A stretch of 63,166 nucleotides of DNA, counting the filler, from Sphacelaria rigidula (taxonomy: Eukaryota): the NCBI GenBank assembly GCA_964200075.2. It is 11 parts of 11 records of this genome, joined end to end, with 100 filler letters (N's around TTAATTAATTAA, not from the genome) between each part and the next. Parts side by side here need not be neighbours in the genome. Positions count along the whole stretch, not along the records: positions 5,753 to 11,404 come from CAXNAA020025548.1; 10 more parts are not named here. The stretch is one strand, 5' to 3'. Below are positions 5,363-17,944 of this stretch, piece by piece. The notes beneath the pieces are model-generated. The model ran no database searches. It worked only from the letters and a program-made list of their open reading frames with translations, and was not told the DNA's origin. The position numbers were made by a program, and so were the translations under genes. Within the stretch, counting starts at the first letter, position 1. Every line of letters begins with the position of its first letter.

Positions 5363-5652
5363 GGTCGCCCCGGTGGCTCAGTTGGTATGCTCGAAACCCT
5401 CTGACGGTTGGGTCGCGAGTTCAATTCTCGGAGCAATCTGGGATTTTTTCTCATACCATGCCCAGCAGTGGAGAGCGACTATGTCGTGGGTACACAGAAA
5501 TGCGACTTGACGGTCGACGAGGAAAATGGATTGCTGAACCCCTCTCGCGATAAAAAATAAAAGGCAAGCACCGCAAAAGGAAAATGGGGTACTAATAACA
5601 AATAGAAAGGAGAAAGCTCCTGTGTTGACCTTCCTCCTGTGTGACCCCGACT
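5363..5652 (+). mobile_element. tRNA-derived SINE (family C), truncated by scaffold end
   Basis: Head GGTCGCCCCGGTGGCTCAGTTGGT (A box) and GAGTTCAATTC (B box). The body is shared with at least 5 other copies in the window. Confidence 0.75.
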
Positions 5653-6909
5653 NNNNNNNNNNNNNNNNNNNNNNNNNNNNNNNNNNNNNNNNNNNNTTAA
5701 TTAATTAANNNNNNNNNNNNNNNNNNNNNNNNNNNNNNNNNNNNNNNNNNNNTTGCGAATTCCGAGCCTCTTGAACAAAATAAATGAAATTTCGATGGTC
5801 CGTTGAACCTCAATTAAATGTTGAGCCTCAAAAACGAATCCAGGCAGTTACAGAAAGAAACAAATTGGCCCGTGACGTGGTACCCGGGCCAGCAAAGGCA
5901 AAAAAAACTCAAGACAGGACGAGACAACAAGACAATGCCCAAAGGGGGATTTATCACCACAACCAGATACTGATTGTCACCCTTTACTCTAACTCGCACT
6001 TTTACATCAGACTGCAAAGCTGACGAGATGATACGCAACATTGTGGAAGGGGCGGGGAAAGCACTCCAGAATCGCCCCAGCTGAAATCCATTGGAGAACG
6101 ACTGTGACATTCAAGCCATGCACCATGGAAAGTATCATGAAATATTCACAACTTACGAGCTTCCTGAACATAGATATTACGTACTTGAATAAAAAGAACT
6201 CTTCTTGTACAATGCCGATCAGCATACATCATGATGGGCCGATCACAATACAAAGATGGAGCTAGCAACGACTTCTCCTTACTCAAACCCCCACAGCATA
6301 CTCGACACACATCTGGATTTATAAAAACCAGGCGATCGGCATGATCGTCTGTCTCGCGTATTTTTCATTACAGAACATCTGAGTGACGGCACCATGAAAC
6401 ATGTACAAGAACGCAGGGAACATAACTACACTAAAAACACCACCTTCATTGGGACAAGTGACTCGACCTCACCGTGTTTTCCAAGTTGAAGAATCTCGAC
6501 ACGAAACGCTCATATCACAAATAACGAAACATACTGAGTGAGCATTCTACAGCGGAACTCTTGGGTTGCCCGAGGCAACCAACTGCATACATCTGTCACT
6601 TTACCCACATCTCCACCCCCATGCAAATACGTTCGTTTACAACAGACACGTTCTTTCATATGGGAACAAAAAATGTGAGTACGCCTTGGATTCGTGCTTC
6701 GCAGAAATTTGACGAACTGGGAGGTCAGCAAACCCTTTGCTTCCCCCCCCCCCCCTTCTCTCCCGGTCTGTCGGGAAAGTCCGAACGTGAAGCAAAAACA
6801 ACGAATACTCAAACACAGCGTATTTACACAGCAGGGTGAAAAAAAACGGACAGAAAAACAGCAGTTGTTTTGCTCTCCAAAGTACGACGCTGGTGAAACA
6901 GGAGTGCCA

Positions 6910-7128
6910 CTAAACACGATCCTCATCATCCACGAGGCCACGTACACCCGCCCAATAACCATCTAAGGCATGAGCGACATGACCTGCATGGAACCAACCC
7001 GCTTGGAACAGCACTTTGTCGGGTGGGGCCACTATGGTAACCCCCCGCGCACCCAGGACATACGAGCACCACACTGGCTGTACTTGATCGCTGTAAGGGT
7101 TTCCTGGCAAATAGTCTGGCAATATCAC
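6910..7128 (-). CDS. Iodothyronine deiodinase-like protein, last exon
   Basis: cag|VILPDYLPGNPYSDQVQPVWCSYVLGARGVTIVAPPDKVLFQAGWFHAGHVAHALDGYWAGVRGLVDDEDRV*. Continues the fold (V..D....N....Y...hydrophobic strands). Phase 0. Confidence 0.7.
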   Translation of the reverse strand: MILPDYLPGNPYSDQVQPVWCSYVLGARGVTIVAPPDKVLFQAGWFHAGHVAHALDGYWAGVRGLVDDEDRV

Positions 7129-8699
7129 CTGATGTTGCGGCATGCAGGGGTTGGCAGGTGGGGGAGCGTATGGGAAGGAAGTGATCAGAAAGCAAGAACG
7201 GGCGCTGCTCGCATCAACGAGGCGACATGAACCTGACCCTCATCTGTTTCCAGAGCTGCTACTCCTCAAAATGGAGATGACAAGTAGAGAGAGCAGTCAT
7301 ACCCCACTTACCGATACAGGACGCGGGTTAGACGTGGCTGTTGTGACCGGGAAGGCGTATCATACGAACCTCGATTATGGACTTCGGGATGTGGTTCTAT
7401 AATGCTGCGCAACCTTATTCAGGAACGGAAATGCGGAGACGAAACTGGAATAAATTACAATTGTAGGGGTTCAGACGGCATGGATAAAACAGCGACCACC
7501 TTGTGGATAAACTTGGTGACGTGTGCGTGTTTGTAGGAGTGGATTAACGTATGCGCAGCAGGTAGAAGGACTGGTCCGACTCCATGGGATGGCCTTATTT
7601 CGAAATCGAAGCAAACGTTGACGATATGCGGTGTACGCAGAGGGTCCGTCCGTTTCCTCATTTCTCTTCGGCGCCGCTGCTCGAGATGCCTCGTGTTTGA
7701 CACCAAGCATTCGACACTACATGCAGAAAGGGATGAAAAAATGGGATGATTTTAGAGACCTGTTGAAACATTTCAACAATCAAAGCATGTTATGTTTTCT
7801 TCAAAGCGCGAGGAACTCGTATATGAGGTCCCGCCAGCGCGATGATCTCAGCATCAGCTCGCACAGACCACAGGATATGCTGTCGAATTGTCCGGCATGC
7901 ATAACGAGCACGAAGAAAGTAACACTACATGATACACGGGTCTCCCACGCCAACACAGGACGTCGGCAACGGTTCTGCCGGACAGGGGAGTACTCGTTGC
8001 CCACGCACGACACGTGATTCTCCCGCACTCAGGACAACATACGGTCAATACAATAGTTGCAACAGACAAAAAATGTACTGCGTAAAGTATAGTCATATTG
8101 CAAATGTTGACCACAAATTGTCAAGAGCGTGGAATCTTCATGTTACAATAGTTGGGCACTCACCACCAGCTGAATCGACCACATGGATCAATTCGTTAGG
8201 ACCGCGGGGAACAAAAAAATGCGTGTTTTGCTCCAAGTCTTCCAGAATTCGATATTAAGAGGTGAGATGAGAGCGTACGGGAACACACGACGTTGTCCGG
8301 TGACGGTAATTATTTCGAAGATAGCCTGTGACCGCGTAGATCCGTTTTCGAATCAAGCTTGTCCTACAGGAGCGCGTTATAACTTGTATCACCTTCCAGT
8401 CAGTGAGTTGGTTAGTGCCGAAGCAGGATAGCCTGTTCCGATCGCTTCCGAGCCCGATGTGTCAAAGACTCTGAGGTATGGCGTGAATCAAATCCAACCC
8501 TACGTGAGGCGACCATATTATATATATCGTTCGGTTCAAGACGTGATAGTGCTGTCGACGAGACTTGGGAGGGGTTGACAGCAGTACATACTGCCGTGAG
8601 TGCAAGACAATTATCCCACGTATCAGACGCTCGACTAGAATTAAGGTCTAAGATGGTACATCTCAACAGGGTAGTATTATAGTACACGTAGCACCCTGC

Positions 8700-8891
8700 C
8701 TGCGAAGGGTGAGTGCTGTTGACGATCTTCGCAGCCATGTTCAAGCGCTCTTCATAGCTGAGAGGCTGGTTGACGACACTCCATGGCATCGGTCGAAAAA
8801 TGCCCTGATCGAAGTTGGTGCCGGGTATCACCGGGTGCGGCTCCGGCCCATAAAGGTGCACAAAAGTCGCTCGATCTTGATATTCTTCCAC
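8700..8891 (-). CDS. Iodothyronine deiodinase-like (thioredoxin-fold) protein, penultimate exon
   Basis: cag|VEEYQDRATFVHLYGPEPHPVIPGTNFDQGIFRPMPWSVVNQPLSYEERLNMAAKIVNSTHPSQ. Aligns by eye to the deiodinase pattern VEEF...ADF..VYI.EAHP...Q....EER...A. Confidence 0.72.
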
Positions 8892-9781
8892 CTGTGAAAC
8901 GGTGCGTGAAATTTTGCAGAAATGCGACGGGACGAGCACGTTAATACTCCGGGGACTAAGGCCTCAGGTGGACCCTAGCCGGACAGCTGAAAACATGTGA
9001 GAATAGCTGCTTTGGTTGAAAAAATATTAGATAATAAGCACAGGTTGAGTGTAACGGTAGTTTGTGTTTCCACTATCCCCAGAAGTGGTCCTCGCCCAGA
9101 GAAAAAAAAAAAACTGTCAGATTGAGTGTGTGTCTAGCGTTGTGACTAACAGTGAATTTTCCACACTCTGGATAATGACAGTAGATTACATTGCCAAAAA
9201 GTGTACTGTACTGCGTACAGTATGGGCTCTTGCGTCTATTGCAATAGACAATATATCCCATACTGTATACAGTACATTTGTCGTCATACATGGTCATTAT
9301 TCAGCGTGTGGAAATTTCACAACTCGCTCCAACTTCAACTCTTCATTTTCTGTGTGTGTGAGAGAGAAAGAGCAGAGTCAGTGCTTCGACAGGATGTAAC
9401 GGCTGTTAGACCGATTCGTGCGTATGCCAGTATATGCTGGATGATATTTTCGCCTGTCATGCCATTCTGACGGCAATGCTGTCGGGAGAGTGTCCACGAC
9501 AGTTGTGCTACCCGAAGCGCGTCGTATTATTGCGGATAAGGAGGAATCCAAAATTGATCTATACATGTGACATGTGTACCCTGGGATTCTAAGACCACTG
9601 ATGCACGTGTAGATTGGGTGGCGAGTGGGGGCACAGTGGGCGTAAACCCGGCGGTTAAAACACCCTGGCCGTTTTCAGCGATGAGAATGGAACCATGATG
9701 CGATTTCATTGCTATGGTTAGCGATCTTCGGTTCTACTTTTGCTTGGCTTCGCGTGTCGAGCGGGGGAGTTGCTCCGGCAG

Positions 9782-10056
9782 AGTTCACCCCTTGGTAAGG
9801 TGAGGTTGACTCACGGTTTCAGTGTGGGCACCGAAATCTGGATCTTCAATGAGAGGGGGGGGTGCTCCTAGTGTGTCCAGAACGCGTTTCTGTCTAAATC
9901 GGCGCCTCCGTCAACGCACACTTTGCCTCGGGAACACTTTGCAACCTCCTTGCCCGAGGGTTTTCGACATGCCTACGTTGGGGTGAGGGTTAGGGTTAAG
10001 ACTATTCGAATTCATGAATTTCTGAGTAAGTTTTTCACCTTACCAAGTGGTGAACT
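9782..10056. mobile_element. Small TIR element (MITE)
   Basis: 22-bp inverted ends AGTTCACCCCTTGGTAAGGTGA / TCACCTTACCAAGTGGTGAACT. Confidence 0.55.
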
Positions 10057-11599
10057 AACCTCTTTTGATCGCCCACATTAAAACCGGGAAAAATATTCAA
10101 AAACAAATTTCCGGGTCTCGCTGATGGAGAAATTGAGTTCGCCAGTCAGAAACGAAGGGTCTGTGCGGTCAGTTCGAAGACAACAACCCCGCAAGGCCTT
10201 CTGTGCACATTACATACACTCTACCCTGGTGCCTTGCTTACGGCCGTACTATCGGTACAACAGTATTGATGCTTCAAGATAAAATTATGCCGACGGAACA
10301 GACACCCACCCTGGAAGTGACTATATATAGATAGACCCGAACTAGAATGAACAGACTGGCCCATCCTGACGATCAAGAAGTACTTTTACAGCTGGCGGGA
10401 GCAAGAGGTGACGCTTTCCAAGGGATACTTGGTGATACCCATAGACAGGGAAGGAGCGAAGGGGGCGGCGGCGGCGGCGGCGGCGGGGGGGGGGGGGGGG
10501 GGGGGGGGGAAAAAAAAAAACAAAAATGCCCGGGCGGAGGGGGATAGATGGCGATCTTAATTAATTTTAANNNNNNNNNNGAGGCGTGGGGGGGGGGGGG
10601 GGGGGTGGGGGTCGAGGGGGGGGCGGGGGACGAGGTAAGCTAGTGACTGGAGGTCAGAGAAGACAACACTATACTGTACTGCGCTGTACGGTGTAGTTCG
10701 CGGCTTTGTTTATCTTTACAGGCAAGAGACACCCTCAGGGTATGGGTCAAATGTGCTGCATAAGCATAATATTCCAAAAATGAATGCAAGACAGAGATAG
10801 CCCACCATGGCGGTCCAAGGATTCAACTTTGCAACTGGCAGCAGGAACAGGTAACGCGCTCGAAGGGTATGGTGTAATCTGTAATCTGATTCTTAGTGAT
10901 CCAATACACAAAGGGAACGAACGCAGCGGGGGGTAGAGAAGACAAAACCGTACTGTACTACACAGTACTGTACTGCGATACTGTGAGGTTTAGTTCGGCT
11001 TTATGTCGACCTATGCAATCACCCTCAGGGGGGGGCGGGGGGTGAGGTAATCTGCGTTGCATTGACACAGTTTTGACGTAGAAACGGAAGACGAACAGAC
11101 AATTCGGGTGATACACTGCAGCAGGGACGTGTGCGTATCATCGGTGCAGAAGGTTTTCTGCGCTTCTTTTCCGACCGATCTGAAGGATCACTCTCATCTC
11201 ATTGGCTTGCGCCATGTTTCCATCAGGGAGACCCACGACACGTTTTGCAAAAAGTTTCCAATGTTTCGGACTCGATTAGCATAGCTAGGAGTTTGTCTTT
11301 TTTCTTTGCCCCCTCCCCCCCCCGCCCCCTTTTTGCGGTAACCATGACGGTAGTCGAGCTAGATCATGTTGTGCGGCGTGGGAGAACCTCAACTCCGCAC
11401 AATGNNNNNNNNNNNNNNNNNNNNNNNNNNNNNNNNNNNNNNNNNNNNTTAATTAATTAANNNNNNNNNNNNNNNNNNNNNNNNNNNNNNNNNNNNNNNN
11501 NNNNTAAGGGGGGTGGGGGGGGGGGGGGAGGGGTGTACTCATGCATGATCATATGATCATAAGTACACCCCCCCCCCCTCCCCAACCCCTTTAATATTA

Positions 11600-14503: not shown

Positions 14504-15368
14504 GTGGGCGTTTGTGTCCGTTCCTCTCGCGGCAATACAGTGTTTTCCTTCTCCCCTGCAAATATTTCGGCAGGATTCGTAGCCCATCGCCGTCAGATGC
14601 CAGCGTTGGTAAGTGAGAGTGTGGGGTGCTCGGGGTGCTTTTACCCGTCGCGCGGAAACACACTTTAGACTCTACGGCACTACTCGCACACTTATAGCGT
14701 CCAGATACCTCAGGTTTCGATCAGGAGGCTGGTGTGACGGGGGAAAAGCACGTACCTACACGTATATACTAGAAGGACACATCGAATACACGCGTACACG
14801 ACGAATGTACTTACCAGCATTCATTGCATGTCGCCGGGGCCTCCCGTTCGTGTCCTGACCCCCCATTCCACGATCTAGCAGACGCAAAAGACTGCCAATA
14901 CTGTGTAATCGGAAAATCTCCATGATGTCTTCGTTATAGCCAAGAGGTCACTACAGCGAAACCTATCGGCAGACGTATTGATTCCGTGTCTTCTCGTCCT
15001 CTTGTGGTGTATATTTACGGGAAACTCGAAGGGTTCCTCGAACCCTAGTGCATGTGCCACACCTCGTTGGTTTTCTGAATGTCCAGCTGCTCCGCGAGGC
15101 TTGGCTTCATTCGCTACCCACGTACGACCTACGATAGCGGTAGAGCAAAAACTAGTTGCTTCTTTTTTTTTACCAGCGTGTGTGGTTTTCAACGCCATCG
15201 GTCGAAGGTTTTCGGTTCTAGTGGCTCCCCATGTGTTTGTCAAATGTTGTTCTTCGCTGAACGCTCTTGTCGCGCGCTGCTCTACGCTTGTAATCAAGCA
15301 AGTGTTTTGTGCTTGTTGCACGACGGGTGTCACAAATATTGTTTGTTTTTTCTGTGGCGTGTATACAG

Positions 15369-15506
15369 CTTGATGATATGGCGGCTGGTGCTCGGCGCAT
15401 CCACTTACGTCCCGAGCACACAAACACCATCACGGATCTCGTGTGCATCGCTGAAAAGGAACTCGTGGTTACCAGCGCTTTGGACAAGCGTGTGTGTGTG
15501 TGGCAG
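15369..15506 (+). CDS. WD40-repeat protein, exon d
   Basis: cag|LDDMAAGARRIHLRPEHTNTITDLVCIAEKELVVTSALDKRVCVWQ|gt. Canonical WD40 repeat. Confidence 0.85.
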
Positions 15507-15559
15507 GTGACTTGGAACTCAAAACACTACAGATGTCGTCAGACGGCGTTCGCGCGCGC

Positions 15560-16064
15560 GGGGAGGGGGGGGGTACTCATGAGCTTGCATGAGGTAGTCG
15601 TATGACCGTTGACCTCGCATCTCAACCATACCGGGACGAAGCACGCCGGGGTTTTGCCGGACCAGGCTGGCAATCAATCACCAAGCGCGAAGCGCCGTGA
15701 TGTGTTCGGCGAGTCGCTTCGGGGGTGACCTACATCCTACTAAGATTGTTCGGCCCGAAGGGTACTGATTTATTGGATGACAACCTCCGATGAGCTGTTT
15801 CATCACCTGGTTTGCAAAACCCAGAGACAGCCACGGCTTATACACGGTATCATGGGCGTCTCGCAATTCAAATACTACGTGATATAACCATCCCGTTTGC
15901 GCGGCCTTGAGGATCTCCCACCTTGCGCAATATGATCTAGCTCGACCACCATCATGGCTACCGCAAAAAAAAGCAAGCGCGCGAGGAAAATAATAAATCT
16001 AGTTGCAAAGCTTACGCAGTTAGTGGCGTGTTTTACAGCGTCATTGCTGACCGACGCCAACCCC
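15560..16064 (-). mobile_element. ~500-bp SINE-like element (family A), near full length, poly(C) tail
   Basis: Head GGGGTTGGCGTCGGT..GCAA.GACGCTGTAAAACACGCCACT, tail ...CATGAGTAC-Cn. About 10 copies or fragments in the window (e.g. 23060-23572, 39776-40162, 45500-45642, 51140-51576, 57516-57661, 61128-61638). Confidence 0.8.
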
Positions 16065-16807
16065 ATAGGGTGGCCGGGGAGGGGGGCTATTTCAGGGGGT
16101 CATTTTTGTTCCTATCTAGAATCCCAGAAAAAATTATGCAGACTCCATGTCTTGTTAGGAATAGCGGGCTACCCCCCTCCCAATCAAAAGCGAGGATGAA
16201 GATGTTTTGTGTCTGGTCTGTTTGTACGCTCATCTTATGCTCTTCAATCTAACTCGTGCACCAGTTTCACACATGCGATCACCGCGTCCTCTCCCGTCGA
16301 TCCACGAGTAATTCAAAAACTTTCAGCAAGATACATCTGAATCAAATTCTACGATGAATACGATTCAGGCCGCGTTTCTCGTAGAGAGTGATGGCACGGG
16401 ATCTGTTCAAGCATCTCAACCTTCCCCTATTGGCTACGTGCATCGCCGCCAAAATGCCACCGGGGGAATTCGGAATAATTTTCCGAGAGCACACCGGTGG
16501 CATTTTCACACTCCATACGGCATCGAGAGCACTCCATACGCTATATGTCTATACAAGTTCCCCTTCCGGGTACATGTTCGTGCGTTTTCATTTTTTATCT
16601 TACGATCAACCGTAGTCTGCATTCCATGTGCGTTGTATCGATCCAGCCTTCCAAGAGAACAGACAAGCATCTTTTAAAGAGTATTTGCGATTCGATTTGA
16701 TATCTTGCACGAATAAATGAGCATCCACCCCCCCCCCAACCCTCCAACCCCCCCCCTCCTCCTCCCCCCGCCCAAATTCCCGTTCGCTACATTTCACCGC
16801 CGTGAAG

Positions 16808-16993
16808 CTTCCCACGTGGAAACTCCGAAAGTCGTTCCGGGAGCACACCTTAGGTGTTCAGACTCTGTCGTACCTGAGGGGTACCTTGCTGTCCGCTGGG
16901 TTTGATTGGGATATCATTGCATGGGACACCGAACGCCTCGAAAAGATCGGGAAAATGACGGGGCATAAATCTCCAGTGACGACGGTATCGCAG
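16808..16993 (+). CDS. WD40-repeat protein, exon e
   Basis: aag|LPTWKLRKSFREHTLGVQTLSYLRGTLLSAGFDWDIIAWDTERLEKIGKMTGHKSPVTTVSQ|gtaggt. Contains GH and WD dipeptides. Confidence 0.88.
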
Positions 16994-17944
16994 GTAGGTG
17001 TGCATAATGTTTTTTCCGAAATAACCACACATGTTTTCGGCATGGTCCCGGACAGGGAAAAAATACGTTATCTTCGCTTATTCCCTCCACCCCCCCCCCC
17101 TACTTGCACAACAGTCAAATACTGAAGCGAAAGCAGACATCTGTGGACGACCGAACNNNNNNNNNNNNNNNNNNNNNNNNNNNNNNNNNNNNNNNNNNNN
17201 TTAATTAATTAANNNNNNNNNNNNNNNNNNNNNNNNNNNNNNNNNNNNNNNNNNNNCGGGGGCTACCCCGTCTTCCAACCCCTCTCGACCCGTGTCGCGT
17301 CTGGCCCCCAGCCACCTTTGCTCGAACCCCGATCCACCTACGACCAGATCCCCGAGAGTGACCGCGATAGGCTGCTTCGCGGTCGATAAAACGCGCTGAA
17401 GTAGCTACGCGATCGAGGGGCATTAATTAGGCCGACAAGAAAGTCATTGGGCACCATCGCTGAAAGCGTGGAGAAAGTACTGTTTTGGGCTCGAACCTCT
17501 ATGAACCTACCTCACTTCATAGAATCCTGTTGGTCAAATCTAAGGAAAGTTGCACGGTTCAGACGAATCATCGCCGGTTCGACAACCAAATCCACGATTC
17601 TTCGGCCTGATTTCTCGAAAGAGGAAAAAAATCGACCGCTGGTCGAATAGATCTCCACGCAACTATTGAGTCATTTCACGTGCCTGTGCTGCGGGTACCT
17701 GGATCGCAGCGCTGAAGACCAAGCCTGACGAACCACGTACGAATAATCACACTAAAATCGAGTTATTTCCGGACGAATCATTAACCCGTCCGACCCTTGA
17801 GAAGTGGCCATTTTTGTGAACTTGATCGTCTCAGGACAAAAATGTGTGTTGGGCCAAAATGAAGACTGTGGCCACTAGAAAACAAACGCGAAGACGTCCT
17901 GGAGCCGTTTCAACCACTGGTCCCTGTACCTCCACCGTTGAGTT

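Follow-up and report, generated by a model that had tools for sequence, protein, structure and literature searches.

Relatives of the vertebrate iodothyronine deiodinases DIO1-3 have been known by sequence from outside animals since 2005, when bacterial deiodinase-like proteins with cysteine (Cys) and with selenocysteine (Sec) were reported (PMC1088965); reviews give such non-animal proteins no tested function, and the prokaryotic ones still have none assigned in a 2026 review (PMC13188914). Homologs are also known from algae (PMC7539508) and Dictyostelium (PMC2375036). We analyzed a 63,166-nucleotide stretch of DNA from the brown alga Sphacelaria rigidula (the window), in which positions 5753-11404 carry, on the minus strand, the 3′ part of a deiodinase-like gene. 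The gene is real and expressed, and profile and fold comparisons indicate that its product belongs to the known deiodinase-like family, in a branch that has not been described before and that brown algae share with bacteria.

An initial annotation of the window had proposed two minus-strand exons and their joining by splicing, and both are borne out, with the TAG stop codon at the end of the second (Table 1). Four sequencing runs from two studies (X1, X3, X4 and X8) were mapped over window positions 5753-10570; they are unlabelled as RNA in their records and are read as RNA from their exon/intron depth and joints. The joint that skips intron 2 was found in X3 and X8, one from each study, and X1 and X4 show a loose end at the edge of exon 3. 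Depth was ~80-210 in bins of the exons and the 3′ untranslated region (UTR) versus 0-13 in most intron bins. Three intron bins of high depth (8007-8167, 9134-9294 and 9778-9938) have loose ends; the stretches concerned (~8068-8100, 9134-9294 and 9778-9938), deep in every run and each flanked there by loose ends, look like repeats transcribed elsewhere. Five slides of the intron 2 cut give an identical mRNA, and splice-site ends, GC..AG, appear in one of them only; a possible GT donor lying five bases beyond was rejected, since the mRNA would then differ from the observed joint. By the exon/intron depth ratio, splicing from the GC donor (window 8699-8698) is efficient, and the three other exon 2 copies in the genome all have GT at the same phase 0 place. 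Full-length homologs align without gaps across the junction of exons 2 and 3, which confirms both the reading frame and the join.

Table 1 Features of the deiodinase-like gene of Sphacelaria rigidula (window positions unless a contig is named)
Feature	Position	Strand	Description
Exon 1	G000:C21793 5577 (or 5604) to 5194	-	outside the window; residues 1-128
Intron 1, 3′ part	8892..11404	-	continues past the contig end; loose end at 8892 in X3 and X8
Coding exon 2	8700..8891	-	residues 129-192 (64 residues); strand after the catalytic helix
Intron 2	7129..8699	-	1,571 nt, phase 0, non-canonical GC-AG
Exon 3, coding part	6910..7128	-	residues 193-264 (72 residues, 7128-6913) and TAG (6912-6910)
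3′ UTR	5755..6909	-	~1.1 kb, end approximate; unbroken depth ~80-170 in the four runs
Artificial spacer	11405..11504	none	filler between unrelated contigs; bounds the real genomic context, likewise 5653-5752

The window consists of contigs of 5,651-5,652 bp strung together, with gaps recurring each 5,751-5,752 bp and N/TTAATTAA spacers between contigs (5653-5752, 11405-11504, 17157-17256 and onward). Positions 5753-11404 are identical to contig G000:C25548, the DNA beyond them is unrelated to the gene, and arguments from neighbourhood across the spacers are void because the contigs are merely concatenated. The catalytic exon could therefore not lie in the window, and tblastn with four full-length homologs found no 5′ exon there. 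The initial annotation was thus correct that this exon is absent from the window and mistaken in treating the window as a scaffold: the exon is on contig C21793. The 30 letters beyond the loose end at 8892 in X3 and X8 match G000:C21793:5195-5224 without a mismatch, compared with 9-13 mismatches to all other contigs tested and to the window. The assignment of exon 1 rests on this RNA-like loose end because the contig ends share no exact overlap (none of at least 15 bp was found, and the shared ends are a common repeat); the fetched contigs are size-sorted, becoming shorter as the contig number goes up. A phase 0 GT donor closes exon 1. Together, exons 1-3 encode a protein of 264 residues from the ATG at C21793:5577, or 273 residues from the ATG at 5604, and the 264-residue form has Cys at positions 17, 37, 105, 120 and 213 only. 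Exon 1 contributes a signal-like stretch, Cys37 and the catalytic Cys105 (codon TGT); exon 2 contributes Tyr142, Glu145, His147 and Pro148, the loop of the deiodinase insertion and Arg177; exon 3 contributes Asp197, Trp212-Cys213, Arg220 and Trp237.

A search of the genome returned four copies each of the 5′ and the middle exon and three of the last, and hence at least four paralogs; the catalytic codon specifies Cys (TGT or TGC) in all four genomic 5′ exons. Exon 2 of the paralog on C10437 matches a Sphacelaria rigidula protein at NCBI at 61 of 61 residues. Sec was considered for the algal gene and rejected on its TGT codon. A search for a selenocysteine insertion sequence (SECIS) in the 3′ UTR, as proposed in the initial annotation, detected no SECIS family in Rfam over window 5753-7000, where the two matches were at chance level.

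Exon 2 by itself retrieved 10 longer homologs at E values of 1e-20 to 1e-14, among them proteins with Sphacelaria, Pylaiella and Hapterophycus names, so the homology is beyond chance, and a Pfam scan of each exon alone and of the open frames gave no match. When a profile of 57 homologs was compared with the PDB sequences, the best matches were mouse Dio3 (4tr3, 3e-16) and Dio2 (7e-12), followed by ResA (1e-6). The fold was assessed from this family profile and from the AlphaFold model of a Cladosiphon homolog, P0008, which is 59% identical (predicted local distance difference test score, pLDDT, 89). Foldseek with the P0008 model ranked 4tr3 and 9h48 at the top, and the wide VIA structure search (48,161 chains) placed 4tr4, a mouse Dio3 structure, first (Z 17.5, root-mean-square deviation 3.7, 171 aligned residues; next 14.6); ResA, BCP and AhpE come after the deiodinases in the profile and structure searches. 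The thioredoxin fold with its deiodinase-specific insertion, which had been predicted for a brown-algal protein from the two exons, is thus present in the model and in the profile.

PF00837 (T4_deiodinase) matches 31 of the 57 members and AhpC-TSA 30 of them (E≤0.01); relative to the PF00837 cut-off of 27 bits, brown-algal homologs score 21-24.9 bits or have no match (single exons: none), and one bacterial form with TGA scores 43. A PF00837 search over the alga's own genome found nothing, nor did its controls, and is uninformative. Among NCBIfam models, NF038285 (deiodinase_rel) is the best match for 13 of 13 proteins and, in a separate scan, for four full-length homologs, with scores of 33-44 bits for brown-algal homologs and up to 124 for bacterial members; the cut-off of this model is 250. 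In the Atlas, the neighbours are clusters of deiodinase-like proteins. Judged by these comparisons, the protein falls within the wider deiodinase-like family and belongs neither to DIO1-3 nor to NF038285.

A search with representatives yielded 265 proteins at E≤0.001 (150 listed). Among the matches listed, named brown-algal members come from Ectocarpus (annotated as 'expressed unknown protein'; ortholog CBN79506), Pylaiella, Scytosiphon, Hapterophycus, Cladosiphon, Nemacystus, Undaria (by gene id), Laminaria, Ascophyllum, Choristocarpus and Sphacelaria, and named ochrophytes outside the brown algae are Phaeothamnion and Pseudopedinella. In a quick tree, built with the two Cys columns discussed below and without animal deiodinases, the protein falls in a clade of 12 rows, the named ones all being brown algae (support of 99 in the Shimodaira–Hasegawa-like approximate likelihood-ratio test), nested in a 23-row clade (99). 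Another clade (P0023, P0025, P0028, P0031, P0036, P0037 and P0184) consists of unnamed proteins of 430-530 residues with long C-terminal extensions, and the C-terminus of P0023 includes a hydrophobic, membrane-like stretch. No published description of the brown-algal branch was found in a search that left most subscription journals outside, and the accessible main text of a study of 60 brown-algal genomes (bioRxiv 10.1101/2024.02.19.579948) has neither 'deiodinase' nor 'dehalogenase'.

To compare active sites, residues were counted over 86 near-full-length rows from 211 profile matches, including this protein and near-duplicates; Dio3 numbers come from the profile alignment, with approximate loop registers, contacts mapped by hand and Arg275 placed just beyond the end of the alignment. 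The catalytic codon stands in the context ACA-TGT-CCT on C21793, with Cys105 at the site of Sec170, where helix 1 starts, and Thr104 before it, so that the catalytic position which the initial annotation could not locate does exist. Cys occupies this site in 84/86 rows and Thr the preceding one (Thr169 in Dio3) in 77/86. Tyr197 (Tyr142 in the alga; 73/86), Glu200 (Glu145; 81/86), His202 (His147; 83/86), Pro203 (Pro148; 86/86), Gly206 (86/86), Arg225 (Arg177; 86/86) and Asp244 (85/86) are retained. The EAH motif is therefore not replaced, as had been suggested: Glu200, His202 and Pro203 align to the Glu, His and Pro of the algal EPH, and only the loop after it differs.

Other positions have changed. 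Ser167 is Met102, Cys168 at the proximal site is Phe103, and the His219 site has Pro, with Pro in 41 rows, Ala in 39 and His in 1; over the 86 rows no column of Cys was found at residues 186-196, where a distal Cys would be expected. Human DIO1 requires the Thr and not the Ser, its His174Ala variant is still active, and the proximal Cys is irrelevant with dithiothreitol and needed only for glutathione (PMC9141512). The proposed thyronine contacts are His202, Trp207, Asp211, Phe258 and Arg275 (PMC11592359, PMC12025243), of which Trp207 corresponds to Ile159, Asp211 to Met163, Phe258 to Gly218 and Arg275 to Trp237 (Trp in 69/86). By alignment, then, the residues of the chemistry are retained and the hormone pocket is not. 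Different substrates, as had been supposed on other grounds, are still likely because Trp207, Asp211, Phe258 and Arg275 are not retained. Separately, His is kept at the His219 site, unlike in most members, in exon 2 of one paralog (L025, on G000:C10756) and in the homologs P0013, P0005 and P0012.

The initial annotation had taken an extra WC motif as a sign of different substrates. Its Cys, Cys213, is instead the best co-varying partner of the N-terminal Cys37, which points to a disulfide. Across 85 rows both are present in 77, both are absent in 7 and one is discordant, and among 15,660 column pairs this one has the top rank (phi 0.93, over the 63 rows left after removal of those >80% identical). 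Nine rows that lack both correspond to five changes on the tree, two of them forced by strong branches, and members without the pair keep the catalytic Cys. Because the two co-vary, Cys37 and Cys213 probably form a structural disulfide, which also fits the hydrophobic N-termini across the family. In the algal protein one short stretch of this kind, a candidate signal peptide or membrane anchor, lies near the N-terminus (11-residue windows starting at 10-14, peak 2.6), so that the mature form might span residues ~25-264; the N-terminus of DIO1-3, which form dimers, is a membrane anchor. In the family at large, a crude hydropathy test found one in 59 of 80 rows that start with Met. The protein is thus probably secreted or in the secretory pathway.

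Bacterial relatives add a second line of evidence on the catalytic residue. A scan of GTDB with one 8-residue pattern containing the WC Cys, which makes for a biased sample, gave 21 loci, including Myxococcota, Anaerolineae, Dehalococcoidales, Thermodesulfobacteriota, Syntrophobacteria, Krumholzibacteriota, Latescibacteria, Eisenbacteria and unclassified metagenome-assembled genomes (MAGs). Among the 20 readable loci (one further locus is cut short) the catalytic codon is TGA in 15, TGT or TGC in 5, and never TAA or TAG, and apart from two frameshifted loci the frame is open on both sides of it. An exchange of Sec and Cys marks a redox-active residue. A short hairpin ~11 nt downstream of the TGA is shared by 13 aligned loci, and both sides have changed in 4 of 6 pairs; its consensus energy is weak and it overlaps coding constraint. 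The TGA loci (L028-L033, L037-L039, L041, L042 and L044-L047) are likely unannotated bacterial selenoproteins that gene callers have split in two.

In L028, L029, L031 and L033, and also in P0128, four CxxCH haem motifs are in frame with the deiodinase-like domain, upstream of the TGA in the four loci (L028 2631, L029 5424, L031 2270, L033 1480), which represent four lineages (Anaerolineae, Thermodesulfobacteriota, Syntrophobacteria and Myxococcales MAGs). It is possible that the four-haem domain serves as an electron source outside the cytoplasm; this fusion is not among the cytochrome selenoproteins in the accessible part of the 2026 review (PMC13188914). Many bacterial N-termini are lipoprotein-like. 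The neighbourhood scan took in 122 of 129 extracted open reading frames (ORFs), the other seven being frames that overlap the gene itself or run opposite to it. No function recurred except for aldehyde oxidoreductase genes in two near-identical loci and an FMN reductase, a short-chain dehydrogenase, an Mfd-like gene and an ATP-grasp gene in two loci each. At L040:5616-7571, selB adjoins a member of the Cys form.

Our tentative preference, by sequence and by analogy with animal enzymes, is for an extracytoplasmic single-Cys reductase that would use an external reductant and apply deiodinase-type chemistry to a halogenated phenol other than thyroid hormone. In short, the protein may work like a deiodinase. 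Such chemistry is favoured because the one activity shown for the family is reductive deiodination, its catalytic network is retained here, and thioredoxin and peroxiredoxin motifs are lacking. In a cycle modeled on DIO1 and DIO3 biochemistry, the Cys105 thiolate would take the halogen from an activated aryl-halide bond while the Thr104/Tyr142/Glu145/His147 network supplied a proton, and the resulting sulfenyl intermediate would be reduced from outside, as needed in a protein with no proximal or distal resolving Cys. The disulfide of Cys37 and Cys213 would clamp the N-terminal arm onto the core, suiting an oxidising compartment. Candidate substrates would be iodo- or bromo-tyrosines or halogenated phlorotannin units; mono- and di-iodotyrosine are reported from Laminaria, and halogenated phenolics from brown algae (PMC2866472).

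Several points weigh against this assignment. Sec is described as a better catalyst than Cys (PMC9141512), and selenium-based deiodinase mimics left the C-Br and C-Cl bonds of thyroxine analogues uncut (PMC12025243). The thyronine contacts are lost, and the His219 site has Pro, whereas only Ala has been shown to be tolerated at this place (in DIO1). The fold was modeled for a homolog, the signal peptide is predicted from hydropathy only, and in the 20 bacterial loci chosen for the WC Cys the N-terminal Cys is present in 17 and absent in 2, with 1 frameshifted. Those who first reported the bacterial members of the family anticipated another redox role for them (PMC1088965), and the 122 bacterial neighbour ORFs include no halogen genes and have no shared context. 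The algal haloperoxidases are reported to be absent from close stramenopile relatives (bioRxiv 10.1101/2024.02.19.579948); since the branch occurs in ochrophytes beyond brown algae, the two were probably not gained together. With the branch also in Phaeothamnion, Pseudopedinella and many bacteria, nothing here supports the specific tie to algal iodine metabolism that the initial annotation had drawn, and a role in halogen chemistry is offered as a hypothesis.

Almost as likely as dehalogenation of a halophenol is a general extracytoplasmic thiol redox enzyme (1-Cys peroxidase-like, or a reductase of sulfenic acid, disulfide or hypohalite) with no carbon-halogen substrate, in which the deiodinase insertion would be an ancestral substrate-binding lid later turned to thyroid hormone by animals. 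It stands so close because the branch extends beyond brown algae, close stramenopile relatives reportedly have no algal haloperoxidases and the bacterial loci have no halogen context. The near-equal AhpC-TSA and T4_deiodinase matches, the ranking of ResA, BCP and AhpE after the deiodinases, the broad spread (Myxococcota, Chloroflexota, Thermodesulfobacteriota and others) with no common neighbours, the lipoprotein-like N-termini and the view of the authors of PMC1088965 all agree with it. However, the deiodinases stand clearly above the peroxiredoxins in both sequence and structure searches, and the deiodinase-specific Tyr/Glu/His/Pro/Arg set is nearly invariant in bacteria and algae. Peroxiredoxins have Thr or Ser three residues before the peroxidatic Cys, in a PxxxT/SxxC motif. 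The algal protein has Met102 at this place (Met in 35/86 rows, Ser in 36/86), and no CxxC active site of the thioredoxin/ResA/TlpA type is found in its 264 residues, which together argue against thioredoxin-type and peroxiredoxin-type catalysis.

An atypical 2-Cys redox enzyme, in which Cys213 (alone or with Cys37) would serve as a resolving or relay Cys and not as part of a clamp, is unlikely. In PrxQ enzymes the resolving Cys lies in a later helix; Cys213 maps to a helix predicted within the thioredoxin core (219-224 of P0008), and the protein has no other conserved resolving Cys. The tight co-occurrence of Cys37 and Cys213 and the retention of the catalytic Cys in members lacking both speak for the clamp. 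A genuine iodothyronine deiodinase, adjusting signals like those of thyroid hormone in the alga, is very unlikely. Dio3 and Dio2 are the nearest solved structures, iodotyrosines have been discussed as signals (PMC2866472), and deiodination activity may best be sought in the paralog and the several algal homologs with His at the His219 site. Identity is only ~20%, however, the best brown-algal score is below the Pfam cut-off, Sec is replaced by Cys, and the thyronine-binding residues and the distal Cys are missing. A non-catalytic binder or carrier of halogenated or phenolic compounds in the cell wall is the least probable of all: it would suit a protein with no resolving Cys and no identified extracellular reductant, but Cys in 84/86 rows and the bacterial TGA exchange fit a catalytic residue.

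A wider and rather doubtful extension of the preferred halophenol reductase is that the whole branch comprises extracytoplasmic reductive dehalogenases free of cobalamin and flavin. The algal Cys forms would recycle iodide and bromide from halogenated tyrosines and phlorotannins of the cell wall, as a removal arm opposite the vanadium haloperoxidases; the Sec forms of anaerobes, some fused to four-haem cytochrome c, would feed electrons to aryl halides; and animal deiodinases would descend from an older halophenol-reducing enzyme. The branch is a practical test case, being Cys-only, probably soluble, expressed in a seaweed and present in organisms that hold iodotyrosines and halogenated phenolics. 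Were halide release found, it would add a halogen-removal step to seaweed metabolism and bear on the origin of the thyroid-hormone deiodinases; were it absent, the branch would still amount to a new family of extracellular redox proteins, among them unannotated selenoproteins of bacteria. What makes it valuable is a deiodinase relative from a halogen-rich lineage that is Cys-only, expressed and open to testing, accompanied by unannotated bacterial Sec and four-haem forms.

Elsewhere in the window, on other contigs, an exon of an unrelated gene with a weak tetratricopeptide repeat (TPR) match lies at 2205-2390 on the plus strand, and one or more exons of another unrelated gene with weak WD40 matches lie at 15294-17008, also on the plus strand.

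Reductive iodine removal from aromatic rings is also the reaction of iodotyrosine deiodinase, an unrelated nitroreductase-fold flavoprotein. The profile, Pfam and structure searches gave no match to such a flavoprotein, save for one peroxiredoxin fusion. This enzyme would offer ochrophytes a rival route for the same job, and a putative form is reported in diatoms (bioRxiv 10.1101/2025.04.19.649686, PMC6627142). The 1-Cys and BCP/PrxQ peroxiredoxins and ResA/TlpA have the fold and the N-terminal module in common with the algal protein, whereas the latter has no CxxC and does not keep the peroxiredoxin motif, and the peroxiredoxins and ResA/TlpA are without the Glu-His loop of the deiodinase insertion.

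Within the family, the prokaryotic deiodinase-like proteins (NF038285) show the same exchange of Sec and Cys, although the scores here are 33-124 bits against the cut-off of 250, and a UxxC motif is given for them (PMC13188914), compared with the Thr-TGA-Pro-Pro type in the bacterial loci found here; the accessible texts of PMC1088965 and PMC13188914 have no mention of the Cys pair, the lipoprotein or signal N-termini or the four-haem fusions. Among eukaryotes, 80% of the algal DIO members are Sec proteins (PMC7539508), as opposed to Cys here, and the Dictyostelium selenoprotein is 37-39% identical to the vertebrate enzymes (PMC2375036). Relative to DIO1-3 (PF00837; 4tr3, 4tr4 and 9h48), the algal protein, at ~20% identity, has Cys for Sec and no SECIS, lacks the proximal and distal Cys, carries Met for Ser167 and Pro for His219, and has lost the thyronine contacts. 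It has gained an insertion after the catalytic helix, a longer loop after the His, and an N-terminal arm with Cys37, the WC motif and a signal-like N-terminus. Common to both are the thioredoxin/peroxiredoxin-like fold with its deiodinase insertion, the Thr-(Sec/Cys)-Pro centre, and the equivalents of Tyr197, Glu200, His202, Pro203, Arg225 and Asp244.

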